Shown in pieces: positions 13,024 to 16,000 of a DNA stretch of 19,043 nt; the stretch's first letter is position 1; each line of letters opens with the position of its first letter. The stretch comes from a virus (Duplodnaviria > Heunggongvirae > Uroviricota > Caudoviricetes). The position numbers were made by a program. The stretch lies in the IMG/VR virus record IMGVR_UViG_2529292831_000013. One strand, written 5' to 3'.

Positions 13024-16000
13024 ACCCGCTCCAGAGAAACAAGCCTTATTGTATCGTTGCACTGGCGTATTTTTTATTGCGTGGGAGCAGGTTGTTTTTA
13101 AAAGGCATTCTGTTTTCTGGCTGTGATTTGAGGTCGGTTATAGCCACAGTGCTGTTTTTTACACCACTGGAATGGTGCATTATCGGTGGAAATTGAGCAT
13201 TTCCTGACAGGGGCCGATGATGCACTATCCCGGTGTTGTAAATAACACTACAGAGGTGTTCCTCAGTGCGAGGGTGGTTTATGTAACTGTTTAGCGGGAA
13301 ACCACAGTATTCATGGAGAGATGGATACTTCGGGGGGCACCCGACACCTCTGTTTTTCTACTACAAAAATGATTCATCTCTGGCATTTTTCAACCGCCGT
13401 TCCGGGCGGTTTTTTTTATTCTGAACTCAGAAAAGAATACACGGGCATTGATATTACCCGTGTGGCAAGGCCATGAAAGCCAATAATGAACTGAGCGCAA
13501 AAAAAGCGCGGCTGTCGGATTAACGCCGCGGGACAAAGTCCGTGAAGAAGAATAAGCATCAGTCTCCTCCAGGAGACGATTTGATATTACTAAGCTTTAA
13601 AAATGGTTTAAACCCCCGGATTAACCTTAATTTCAGATAAGCTTTATTTCATTTTCTCCGAGCCACGTCAGGCGCATATCACATCAGATAACACCACATA
13701 AAAGGTATCTGCGGGTGCCTTTCACGGGGTGTTTTTTTACGGGCCGCTGGTGGCCCTTTTTTATTTACAGGAGAAAAAGTATGTCTGAACCCTTATCCGG
13801 TTCCGGCACGGCTGCAGCGCTCGGCGGGGCGACGGTGTACGGGCTGTTTACCGGAACGGATTTCGGGATTGTGTTTGGTGCCTTTGCCGGGGCGTTATTT
13901 GTGGCAACGATGCCGCAGGCGCTTTCAGCCTGGCGTGTGGCGGCACATTTTCTGGTGTCGTTCATTGTTGGTGTGCTGGGGGCAGAAGTTCTGGCATCCT
14001 GGCTGGTAAAGCATACAGAGTTTGACGGTGCACCTGTCGACGCATTGTGTGCAGTACTGGTGTCAGTGGTGTCGGTGAAGATTCTCTCGTTCATCCACCA
14101 GCAGGATATTGCATCACTGGTGTCCGGTCTGTTCTCCCGTCTGCGGGGCGGAGGAGGCGGCAATGTTAAGTAACCTTCCCGGATTGCTGAATGTGGCGTT
14201 ATGCACGGTTATCGTGCTGACGCTCTTTTTTTATCGTCGTCGTGATTCCAGACATAAACCGTTGATGTCATGGCTGGCCTGGCTGCTGATGCTGCTTTAT
14301 GCCTTTGCACCACTCAGTTATCTGTGCGGTCGCCCGTTAGCGGCGAACTGGCTGGCGGTGGGGCTTAATCTGCTGTTCTGCGTGTTGGTTATTCGCGCAC
14401 GCGGGAACGTTTCAAAAATCTTTGTATTACGAAGACGCTGATATGAAGTCGAAAGATGAAATTTTTGACGAAGTTCTGGGAAAAGAGGGCGGTTACGTCA
14501 ATCACCCGGATGATAAAGGCGGACCGACAAAATGGGGTATTACGGAAAAAGTCGCCCGCGCTCACGGATATCAGGGCGATATGCGTGACCTGACACGCGA
14601 ACAGGCACTGGAAATCCTTGAGGCGGATTACTGGTTCGGACCACGCTTTGATCAGGTGGCCGCATTATCCTCTGATATTGCTGCAGAGTTGTGTGATACC
14701 GGTGTGAATATGGGGCCGTCCGTAGCATCGAAAATGCTCCAACGCTGGCTGAACGTTTTCAACCTGCAAGGCAAATTGTTCCCGGATATGGACGCAGACG
14801 GGCGTATCGGCCCCCGCACGATTAATGCACTACGGACTTATCTGCAAAAACGCGGCAAAGACGGCGAACTGGTGATGCTGAAGGCGCTGAATTGCACGCA
14901 GGGCGACCGCTATCTGGAGCTGGCAGAAAAACGCGAGGCCAACGAGTCGTTTGTCTACGGCTGGATGAAAGAGCGCGTAGCAGTTTAAAAACTGACGCTG
15001 AAGTGCTGAACACCCTCAACTCACGCAGGCTCTTTTCTGGGGTTACGATGAGCGAAAGTAAGGGGTACCGCATCAGATAGCAAAAACCCCGGCTGCTGGA
15101 ACAGTCCGGGGTTTTTAGTTTTCACGTCAAAGAGGAAATTGTGAGTAGTGAGTACGGAGAAAATCCTCGTGGGAAAGTATAAAAGATTCTTTTTGAGGTT
15201 GTCCATTATGAAAGGTATTGAAGTGGAAACTCCCGCGAGCCTTGATTTGACAAGGGCTGCGGCCTTTGCAATTCGCCTTGTGGCGGTCGCTGTTCTGATT
15301 TGGGCTGTGCGTTGGTGGTGATATGACGCGAAAACACTGGACACACAGAATGCCGCGAACGGCGGCGAAATGGGCACTGGTAGCGATACTGGTGCCTTTT
15401 TTCTTGGTGGGATGCGTCAGCCTGGATAAAGCGCGCCAGCTTTTCGATACGGCTTCTCGGGTCTGTGAAATTGTCGACGGTGTTCGGCAGTGTATGCAGA
15501 ACTGATCGCCTGTAAGAGCAGAATATTTTGCTGAAAAATGAAGGGGTCACTTGCGTCCGGAAAGCATGAAATTCTATGTTTGTGATCATTCGATGACATA
15601 ATTTCTTACTTCCGCCGTTTCCGGGGGGGAGGAACAAAGTAGAAAGAGTTGCCCGTTTGATGGGCAACTCATGCAGTTATTGTGAGCAATACACACGCGC
15701 TTCCAGCGGAGTATAAATGCCTAAAGTAATAAAACCGAGAAATCCATTTACGAATGTTTGCTGGGTTTCTGTTTTAACAACATTTTCTGCGCCGCCACAA
15801 ATTTTGGCTGCATCAACAGTTTTCTCCTGTCCAATTCCCGAAACGAAGAAATGATGGGTGATGGTTTCCTTTGGTGTTACTGCTGTCGGTTTGTTTCCAA
15901 CAGTAAACGTCTGTTGAGCACATCCTGTAATAAGCATTGCCAGAGCGGCAGAAAACAACATTTTTTTCATCTTATTATCCTGCATTGTTAAAAACGGCAG

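Follow-up and report, generated by a model that had tools for sequence, protein, structure and literature searches.

How is the outer membrane breached in a lambdoid prophage whose late region lacks Rz/Rz1? In Gram-negative hosts the final step of lysis is considered to require spanins. The question is raised by IMG/VR record IMGVR_UViG_2529292831_000013, a stretch of 19,043 nucleotides (nt) from a virus of the Caudoviricetes, which is called the window here. It shares 99.8% identity with a defective lambdoid prophage of human enterotoxigenic Escherichia coli (ETEC) chromosomes (e.g. NZ_CP025916). Rz/Rz1 are neither annotated nor detectable in the late region of the window. Between the endolysin terminator and the bor hairpin an earlier note on this DNA described two tiny coupled open reading frames (ORFs), and they are present as described, separated by one base. 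The first (ORF1) encodes a small membrane peptide and the second (LIP) a prolipoprotein of 60 amino acids (aa). We propose that LIP is an outer-membrane-directed lysis gene, the third of a holin-endolysin-LIP cassette in which it replaces Rz/Rz1, and we give this reading a little better than an even chance. LIP would be an orphan lysis lipoprotein resembling the outer-membrane spanin subunits (o-spanins), and ORF1 would be separate from it; the lysis function and every mechanistic step set out below are what we infer. The LIP homologue of phage phiP27 has already been catalogued as an o-spanin, with a published partner that does not hold up.

As judged from its pattern of substitution, LIP is a genuine gene under purifying selection. 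The ratio of non-synonymous to synonymous change (pN/pS) among 48 unique alleles is 0.20 in its own frame, compared with about 1-2 in all of the other five but one, an antisense frame whose value of 0.31 is attributed to shared third codon positions. Two antisense ORFs on the minus strand (15021-15377 and 15206-15667) were considered as real genes; pN/pS calculated frame by frame rules them out, and so does the conservation of the signal peptide, the lipobox and the pattern of Cys. The Prokaryotic Genome Annotation Pipeline (PGAP) starts LIP at M10 (15350), which gives a protein of 51 aa. M10 varies (M/V/I/T) but residues 1-9 (MxRKHWTHR) and the ATG after a Shine-Dalgarno-like GGTGG/GAGG are conserved, even in members of ~50% identity, and the 60-aa call is therefore the better one. 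The Shine-Dalgarno sequence falls within the last codons of ORF1. In hundreds of RefSeq E. coli genomes the PGAP starts for LIP and for ORF1 (15208) are likely to be in error.

The protein has the features that were first ascribed to it, a lipobox (L28-V-G-C31), further cysteines (C48 and C57) and no proline-rich stretch. The signal peptide begins with an unusually long basic n-region, MTRKHWTHRMPRTAAK. The codon of the predicted acylation site, Cys31, lies at 15413-15415, and the predicted mature peptide of 30 aa, CVSLDKARQLFDTASRVCEIVDGVRQCMQN, is without proline. The lipobox Cys and two further Cys are the family invariants (C-x16-C-x8/9-C, with C48/C57 invariant or nearly so). The h-region LVAILVPF is conserved, and the n-region (MxRKHWTHRxPR) is 12-17 residues long, of which as many as six or seven are basic when His is counted. 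A check of the signal-peptidase II site, made by rule, returned the lipobox LVGC with an invariant Cys and no Asp at position +2. Across the family residue +2 reads V/A/T/S/G/E and, by the same rule-based reading, never Asp. By the Lol sorting rule lipoproteins with no Asp at +2 go to the outer membrane, and this destination is thus expected for LIP. AlphaFold2 (AF2) models the protein as one long helix (residues 12-59) with a predicted local distance difference test score (pLDDT) of about 60-66. The mature part is amphipathic, with a moment of 0.77 over 11 residues (ARQLFDTASRV). A search of PDB sequences with LIP gave nothing convincing.

The LIP family is small (134 clusters at 90% identity) and confined to Enterobacterales. 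A profile search of 1.84 billion representatives gave 23 matches at E<=0.001. The family members among these matches are small Enterobacterales proteins with no informative extra domain; the outliers are one 111-aa N-terminal fusion and two longer proteins that match over a short segment only. A scan of genome contigs found LIP in 3 species representatives only, and it is carried by 355 of 5426 complete E. coli genomes (~6.5%). It occurs in phages encoding Shiga toxin (Stx) 2e (phiP27) and Stx2k and in ETEC prophages. No study of the family was found in the literature searched by protein accession and topic. A LIP gene with 95% nucleotide identity to those of E. coli prophages lies in the record of Actinobacillus phage vB_Apl-pPE4 (PP818812.1, 20079-20261), whose host assignment or purity may deserve checking given so E. 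coli-like a LIP.

The genomic setting carries the argument for lysis. LIP loci were gathered from viral and genome collections together with annotated reference records, in all 166 loci (L numbers below), of which 162 encode LIP; counts of architecture refer to the first 87 LIP sequences. In all 87 the order is a PF16931 holin, a PF05449 holin, an endolysin (M15 or GH108), an optional insert and LIP. ORF1 is lacking in 35 loci, and in 28 of these LIP starts 14 nt 3' of the stop codon of an M15 endolysin. In L078 LIP overlaps the stop of a GH108 endolysin (ATGA), as it does in L006 if the LIP start there is that of the ORF scan. Divergent members (about 45-65% identity) start 2-15 nt 3' of M15, GH108 or CHAP/NlpC-like endolysins, in cassettes with either a lambda-S-like holin (PF05106) or the PF16931+PF05449 pair. 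Whichever of the three endolysin families and two holin arrangements is present, LIP is the constant last gene of these cassettes. What it stays with is the 3' end of the endolysin gene and not a tail or receptor-binding gene, and this holds for the myovirus phiP27, for a lambda-like siphovirus prophage and for several terminase types. A role as an inhibitor or chaperone specific to the endolysin was considered and discarded, since the endolysins that precede LIP belong to three unrelated classes (M15, GH108 and CHAP-like). In one divergent LIP subfamily (L096 4176-4394, L097, L094 481-732, L102) the LIP stop is overlapped by ~14 nt by a gene for an acidic soluble protein of ~72-83 aa, which is conserved in that subfamily and absent from the window.

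Is the place that LIP occupies the one in which spanin genes are found? The two ORFs had been described as standing in the spanin position, and comparison with other phages bears this out. Yersinia phage vB_YpM_44 has the same two holin families and an endolysin that is 88% identical. Directly 3' of its endolysin stop, the gene of a 92-aa inner-membrane spanin subunit (i-spanin) that matches phrog_1026 ('Rz-like spanin', E 6e-32) overlaps an o-spanin gene (phrog_1275). In Klebsiella phage Seifer the slot is filled by a membrane protein and an annotated o-spanin. In Stx2a-type phages the ...CGTTGGTGGTGAT-ATG junction 3' of ORF1, which leads into LIP in the window, is identical and leads into Rz. 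These comparisons support the identification of the LIP locus with the spanin slot.

LIP and Rz/Rz1 show a pattern of mutual exclusion. They occur together only in phage GER2 and in the Stx2a prophage of E. coli O104:H4 C227-11, where LIP is a pseudogene that has lost its start and carries three in-frame stops (L091 3872-4039 in GER2, L166 3001-3184 in O104:H4). The pseudogene is unannotated; in these Stx2a-type phages it has the Rz/Rz1-Ais region on one side and the terminase genes on the other. The E. coli collection holds 61 records in which the best LIP match is below 90% identity, and the lowest-identity ones that were sampled are unannotated. A short conserved boundary sequence, GCAGAATnTTnTGCTGAAAAATG, is found 3' of LIP in the window (15506-15550) and 3' of the endolysin gene R in GER2 (L091 2320-2345); it is probably a recombination joint of lambdoid mosaics.

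Nor was an inner-membrane partner found nearby. At 86 loci neither a type II membrane ORF with a hydrophilic tail nor a second lipobox ORF was present within -3.5/+3 kb of LIP. Four spanin pairs gave no tblastn match in the 1.25 Mb around 162 LIP loci, and the complete 42.6-kb genome of phiP27 holds no credible i-spanin candidate. A survey of Stx phages reported Rz in 277 of 279 phages and left the two exceptions unnamed (PMC8136144). It also includes two cluster C Stx2e phages with endolysin and holin phams of their own, one of them a myovirus from a human isolate in Germany (PMC8136144). From these separate phams we take the two cluster C phages to be the two without Rz, one of them phiP27-like.

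A partner has nevertheless been published. Kongari et al. (2018, BMC Bioinformatics 19:326; PMC6139136) listed phiP27 as having a 'separated' two-component spanin, with the o-spanin and the i-spanin each a singleton family. The o-spanin entry (20706-20861, 51 aa, mature length 30 aa, 83% predicted helix; PMC6139136) is a direct homologue of LIP, 93% identical. The i-spanin is an ORF of 64 aa with a TTG start (20348-20542) that was assigned bioinformatically (PMC6139136). Among the 162 LIP loci this ORF is found only in phiP27-type sequences, and it has no PHROG match. The strand opposite to it carries a 90-aa ORF whose whole length matches phrog_36812; in L041 the 90-aa ORF is kept at 45% identity and the 'i-spanin' frame is not conserved. 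Being unconserved and antisense to the phrog_36812 ORF, the published i-spanin was rejected as a conserved partner of LIP, which leaves LIP an orphan. The shortest periplasmic length of any two-component spanin in that survey, 62 residues in a range of 62-300, is that of phiP27 (PMC6139136), and this minimum therefore relies on a doubtful i-spanin. The stretches of phiP27 concerned are 20348-20604 and 20630-20861 (L002/L095). RefSeq phiP27 has no LIP annotation and shows the coding sequence L32 in an overlapping wrong frame.

Set beside a two-component spanin, LIP has no i-spanin and no homology to a known family, and its mature length is 30 aa against 62-300 residues for the two subunits combined. 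The earlier remark that these genes are too small for a canonical two-component or unimolecular spanin is right for LIP, which also has no C-terminal transmembrane domain. What LIP does share with o-spanins is a predicted outer-membrane lipoprotein signal and the periplasmic cysteines C48/C57, predicted to be able to form disulfides. Conserved periplasmic Cys are a general o-spanin feature (PMC6139136). LIP lies within the lysis cassette directly 3' of the endolysin, but without an i-spanin gene beside it.

Could ORF1 be the missing subunit? It had been described as a C-terminally anchored peptide of 37 aa (ATG 15208 to TGA 15321). The hydrophobic C-terminal stretch, AAAFAIRLVAVAVLIWAVRWW, is there; the length has to be revised. 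The true start is very probably GTG 15169, 13 codons 5' of the ATG, which would give 50 aa beginning MGKYKRFFLRLSIMKG... This start is preferred because the upstream codons, GKYKRFFLRLSI, are kept as protein (KYKRxxLRL) with mostly synonymous change (the diverged subfamilies read MRKYKPILLRLT and MEKYKRILLRLT), because the codon at 15169 is ATG in L023 and in the L052/PhiR12_2 subfamily, where it is preceded by AAGGAG, and because the PHROG 4493 profile begins at this position. Between the window and phage GER2 the 37 C-terminal codons differ by 4.5 non-synonymous and 19.5 synonymous changes (pN 0.054, pS 0.71), and by this measure ORF1 too is a genuine gene under purifying selection. Its profile families (PHROG 4493/1115) are of unknown function. 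Neither ORF1 nor LIP has a Pfam, NCBIfam or PADLOC match.

ORF1 has a basic N-terminus and a C-terminal transmembrane helix. Its 29 N-terminal residues carry a net charge of +3 and no signal peptide, and by the positive-inside rule the N-terminus is predicted to be cytoplasmic. Only RWW follows the helix, so that essentially no periplasmic domain is expected. This predicted topology argues against an i-spanin role. The distribution of ORF1 points the same way. ORF1-type peptides are present in 52 of the 87 LIP loci. In a third insert arrangement (the L052 type) an ORF1-like protein of 60 aa and an unrelated 44-aa membrane peptide (PHROG 4906) both lie 5' of LIP. In GER2 and in the O104:H4 C227-11 prophage the order is a class II holin, lysozyme, a terminator, ORF1 (~90% identical) and Rz with embedded Rz1, and in PhiR12_2 it is R, an ORF1-like gene, a 43-aa peptide and Rz/Rz1. 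Since ORF1 is missing from many LIP loci and precedes Rz/Rz1 elsewhere, it appears to be a mobile accessory module.

These observations bear on the suggestion in the earlier note that the two genes form a minimal spanin pair or a toxin with its partner. As a minimal two-component spanin, ORF1 would supply the C-terminally anchored inner-membrane subunit. The coupling of the genes is tight (the ORF1 stop, one base and the LIP ATG, with the LIP ribosome-binding sequence inside ORF1), and Kongari et al. (PMC6139136) raise the theoretical option of an i-spanin that is a type I protein with its transmembrane domain at the C-terminus. However, 35 of 87 LIP loci do without ORF1, an ORF1 of ~90% identity stands before a complete Rz/Rz1 in GER2, only three residues of ORF1 would face the periplasm and a foreign membrane peptide separates the two genes in the L052 type. 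A minimal pair is thus highly improbable, and a toxin unit made up of the two ORFs is not supported either. We regard ORF1 as a separate, optional small inner-membrane module that has its own upstream terminator and precedes whatever fills the spanin slot. A role as a lysis-timing accessory is a guess. Lysis by LambdaSo depends on Lcc6, a 65-aa transmembrane phage protein that formerly had no assigned function and that works at the holin level (bioRxiv 10.1101/2024.01.23.576932). Lcc6 and ORF1 are both small membrane proteins, a likeness of description and not of compared sequence, and ORF1 is optional in its cassettes.

The sequences around the start of ORF1 suggest a different role for it, as the toxin of a type I toxin-antitoxin-like or sar-like antisense module to which LIP would be merely downstream. 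A terminator-type hairpin of one of two sequence types lies 5' of ORF1 in 19/19 unique 5' regions; in L167 its U-run is replaced by G's. A minus-strand promoter candidate (15205-15176) has a -10 element (AAGTATAAA on the plus strand) that is invariant in 19/19 unique 5' regions. Together with the bidirectional terminator at a distance of 60-90 nt, the promoter candidate (the two fall within 15079-15205) could produce a ~90-nt antisense RNA over the Shine-Dalgarno sequence and start of ORF1, which is an unverified lead. This predicted RNA folds with a z score of -4.9, and its geometry over the ribosome-binding site of ORF1 recalls P22 sar. The Rfam match to sar is weak, 23.3 bits against a gathering score of 43. 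Membership in the sar family was rejected, the match being below the gathering score in the window, absent in the L052 type and not at gathering in L030, L044, L090 or L091. A toxin role agrees with a small hydrophobic peptide of 50 aa and with these antisense elements, but promoter-like sites in the region are no more numerous than in shuffled sequences and the invariant AAGTATAAA is also explained by conserved K-Y-K codons. A promoter scan of the region found neither a plus-strand promoter for ORF1 nor a promoter of its own for LIP. ORF1 is moreover always in the late operon, in the interval from the endolysin to the spanin slot. We consider the toxin reading improbable.

A second RNA element lies inside LIP itself, a terminator-like hairpin with a U-run in the signal-peptide codons. 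Among 38 unique alleles, some of them from subfamilies of ~60% protein identity, its stem hardly changes, and synonymous sites outside it vary. In the alignment 97% of cells are paired, and most stem substitutions keep pairing by wobble. Such G·U pairs make the hairpin specific to the sense RNA. Variation is too scarce for the covariation test to reach significance. At the same position L092 forms another hairpin, a perfect one of 7 bp. The hairpin could restrict LIP to antiterminated transcripts.

The terminator upstream of LIP and the terminator-like hairpin inside it argue against its expression in lysogens, and thereby against the suggestion that LIP is a surface-altering outer-membrane lipoprotein. 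Such a protein would serve superinfection exclusion or lytic conversion, like T5 Llp or the Cor proteins of phi80 and N15, or would be a virulence moron like Bor/Iss. LIP is indeed predicted to be a small outer-membrane lipoprotein with conserved cysteines, as is T5 Llp. It also sits in the moron-rich interval from the lysis genes to cos, beside bor/iss, and toxin genes are inserted at the same place in L167. Against this, LIP lies 2-15 nt after the endolysin stop or overlaps it and has no promoter of its own, and its linkage to the endolysin holds over myovirus and siphovirus backbones, which sets it apart from Cor/Llp-type exclusion lipoproteins. Unlike bor it is never intact together with Rz/Rz1, and it has no Pfam or PADLOC match. 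Exclusion had been among the first proposals for this locus; it is disfavoured here because LIP travels with the endolysin and not with tail or receptor-binding genes, and as a whole we hold the surface-lipoprotein reading to be rather unlikely.

The toxin genes of L167 are an observation in their own right. In E. coli MB07081 (L167 1169-2306) an 'enterotoxin A family protein' gene and an 'enterotoxin' gene lie between the GH108 endolysin and ORF1-LIP, at the same insertion hotspot. They are possibly LT-II-like. The LIP of this locus is frameshifted and the prophage is truncated.

How would a lysis lipoprotein of this kind act? LIP would be transcribed with the late genes by Q-antiterminated RNA polymerase, with terminators placed 5' of ORF1 and inside LIP. 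After export the protein would receive its lipid at Cys31, be processed by signal peptidase II and reach the inner leaflet of the outer membrane through the Lol pathway. With the peptidoglycan cleared by the holins and endolysin, the 30-residue amphipathic helix with its C-terminal Cys-x8-Cys would destabilise the outer membrane. This action would take place without a phage-encoded inner-membrane subunit that spans the periplasm. In one variant LIP would act alone, as disulfide-linked oligomers or with a host factor such as the phospholipase PldA. In the other an inner-membrane anchor would be provided by an uncleaved type II precursor or by a holin-like protein. The long conserved n-region and the type II topology of the uncleaved prolipoprotein make a model of one gene with two topological forms worth testing. 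The suggested functional analogy with spanins rests on position, linkage and exclusion.

Several points weigh against a lysis role. The interval from the lysis genes to cos is a known moron hotspot (bor adjoins), so that position alone is no proof. The identical stops of the LIP pseudogenes in GER2 and O104:H4 mark the decay of LIP as a single evolutionary event, and most of the loci sampled come from E. coli prophages that are close relatives of one another and are non-independent. The window prophage itself is defective, its terminase gene being broken by an IS66 element according to the annotation. LIP has no sequence similarity to any spanin family: its PHROG (7528) is of 'unknown function', with the proteins of vB_YpM_44, which match the Rz-like PHROGs, as positive control, and Pfam and NCBIfam give nothing. 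Confidence in the AF2 model is only moderate (pLDDT 66). The disruptin is cationic but the mature LIP peptide is neutral (net charge 0), and a domain of 30 residues cannot span the periplasm. Finally, all experimentally studied o-spanins need an i-spanin (PMC6139136).

The last point favours a sub-variant of the lysis reading in which LIP is a conventional o-spanin with an unrecognised inner-membrane partner, be it a holin-like protein, a host protein or its own precursor. The unusual signal peptide, with its long basic n-region and invariant LVAILVPF, would fit a functional precursor, and unconventional anchors are explicitly allowed by Kongari et al. (PMC6139136). But no conserved partner candidate is found near LIP across the three cassette types, and the holins switch (PF16931+PF05449 versus PF05106) while LIP stays. 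Two helices of 30 aa would be far too short for an intact periplasm, and the invariance of the h-region may instead reflect the conserved mRNA hairpin. We think a hidden partner unlikely, though it is a possibility of some weight. If LIP does act in lysis without one, it may represent a third kind of phage outer-membrane disruptor beside the spanins and the cationic disruptins, namely a partner-less, lipid-anchored helix of ~30 residues with a disulfide-capable Cys pair, limited by its internal hairpin to Q-antiterminated late transcripts. This is a tentative proposal, to which we give well under an even chance.

Known systems resemble LIP in part. The Rz/Rz1 of lambda and Rz-like spanins (PHROG 1026/1275), compared over embedded, overlapped or separated architectures, share with it the slot and, as predicted for LIP, a precursor of ~60 aa, an outer-membrane lipoprotein, conserved periplasmic cysteines and late expression. 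In lambda, however, an i-spanin is present and the mature domain is proline-rich and unstructured, whereas LIP is helical and proline-free with a long basic n-region, and there is no sequence similarity. The unimolecular spanin of T1 (gp11) likewise fills the spanin slot with one gene, whose product carries a lipoprotein signal at its N-terminus. LIP differs from it in lacking a C-terminal transmembrane domain, and its 30 mature residues are too short for bridging. Neither such a domain nor the length of a unimolecular spanin was seen in LIP family members among the profile matches listed. Colicin lysis proteins or bacteriocin release proteins (Lysis_col) and entericidins are also very small lipoproteins, with ~25-35 mature residues, and permeabilise the envelope. 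The signal peptides of bacteriocin release proteins are functional in their own right. LIP differs from this group in having no Pfam match at E<=1, a place in a phage late operon, two conserved Cys and another mature sequence. The disruptin of phiKT (gp28; bioRxiv 10.1101/515445) is comparable as a small single-component candidate for outer-membrane disruption from a spanin-less phage and as an amphipathic helix, but it is a cationic soluble peptide, whereas LIP is predicted to be a secreted and lipid-anchored lipoprotein of net charge 0.

The late region of the window reads Q, a DNA methylase gene, two tRNA genes, the two holin-like genes, the GH108 endolysin, the terminator, ORF1 and LIP, and 3' of LIP follow bor/iss and ylcI, both on the minus strand, Nu1, and gpA cut by an IS66 element (Table 1). 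The tRNA genes (annotated Thr and Gly, 12880-13030) lie directly 5' of the lysis cassette, a place taken in Stx phages by stx genes and tRNAs. The early region of the prophage contains, at 7030-7354, a type I toxin-antitoxin locus of the hok/sok kind (Rfam sok, 110 bits; hokD annotated). The prophage is a remnant. On its left side it carries non-phage cargo (527-6185: a BCCT transporter, DUF2254 and ParA-like genes) beside IS100, and on the right the large terminase gene is interrupted by the IS66-family element from ~18849 to the end of the window, as annotated in the 99.8%-identical ETEC locus.

Table 1. Features of the lysis cassette and its right border in the window (dG, folding free energy; z, z score of folding)
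Feature	Position	Strand	Details
Holin-like gene 1, first lysis-cassette gene	13781..14173	+	130 aa; Pfam Phage_holin_8 (PF16931), E 3e-22; PGAP 'putative holin'
Holin-like gene 2	14163..14441	+	92 aa; Pfam Phage_holin_3_7 (PF05449), E 2.9e-21; PGAP annotation
Endolysin	14443..14988	+	Pfam Glyco_hydro_108, E 1.7e-26, and PG_binding_3, E 1.2e-25; PGAP annotation
Bidirectional intrinsic terminator (A-run, stem, U-run) in the endolysin/ORF1 gap	15083..15117	.	dG -22.3 kcal/mol, z -4.65
ORF1, small membrane peptide	15169..15321	+	50 aa from GTG (very probable start); form of PGAP and of the earlier note 15208-15321, 37 aa
Sigma-70-like promoter candidate within the first ORF1 codons	15176..15205	-	TGGACA-18 nt-TATACT, 10/12 consensus
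LIP, predicted prolipoprotein	15323..15505	+	ATG to TGA, 60 aa; PHROG 7528 'unknown function'
Hairpin and U-run within LIP signal-peptide codons 17-28	15372..15406	+	dG -18.7, z -5.1
bor-side terminator hairpin	15646-15670	.	dG -18.1
bor/iss lipoprotein gene, right bound of the locus	15677..15970	-	Pfam Lambda_Bor, E 3.7e-30; PGAP 'Iss'

To our knowledge the disruptin is the only solved example of how the outer membrane is breached in a spanin-less phage. Of the phages surveyed, about 13% lack any recognisable spanin, and in 31 genomes a lipoprotein is present but no i-spanin (PMC6139136). The LIP family offers a genetically tractable case in E. coli, in which a gene of 60 aa takes the place of Rz/Rz1 in otherwise homologous cassettes. 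In the Stx2e, Stx2k and ETEC settings where LIP is found, lysis governs the release of toxin. In a porcine Stx-producing E. coli, deletion of a 130-aa PGAP 'putative holin' (WP_032083190) that lies just 3' of stx2e abolished antibiotic-induced release of Stx2e (PMC12571312); this protein is presumably of the same family as holin-like gene 1 of the window, by inference rather than by comparison of the proteins. Three annotation errors are fixed, namely the PGAP start of LIP, the missing LIP in RefSeq phiP27 and the start of ORF1, and the published 'spanin pair' of phiP27 needs correcting whether or not LIP works alone. If it does work alone, no smaller protein that breaches the outer membrane would be known, and LIP would be a candidate module for enzybiotics or for engineered lysis.

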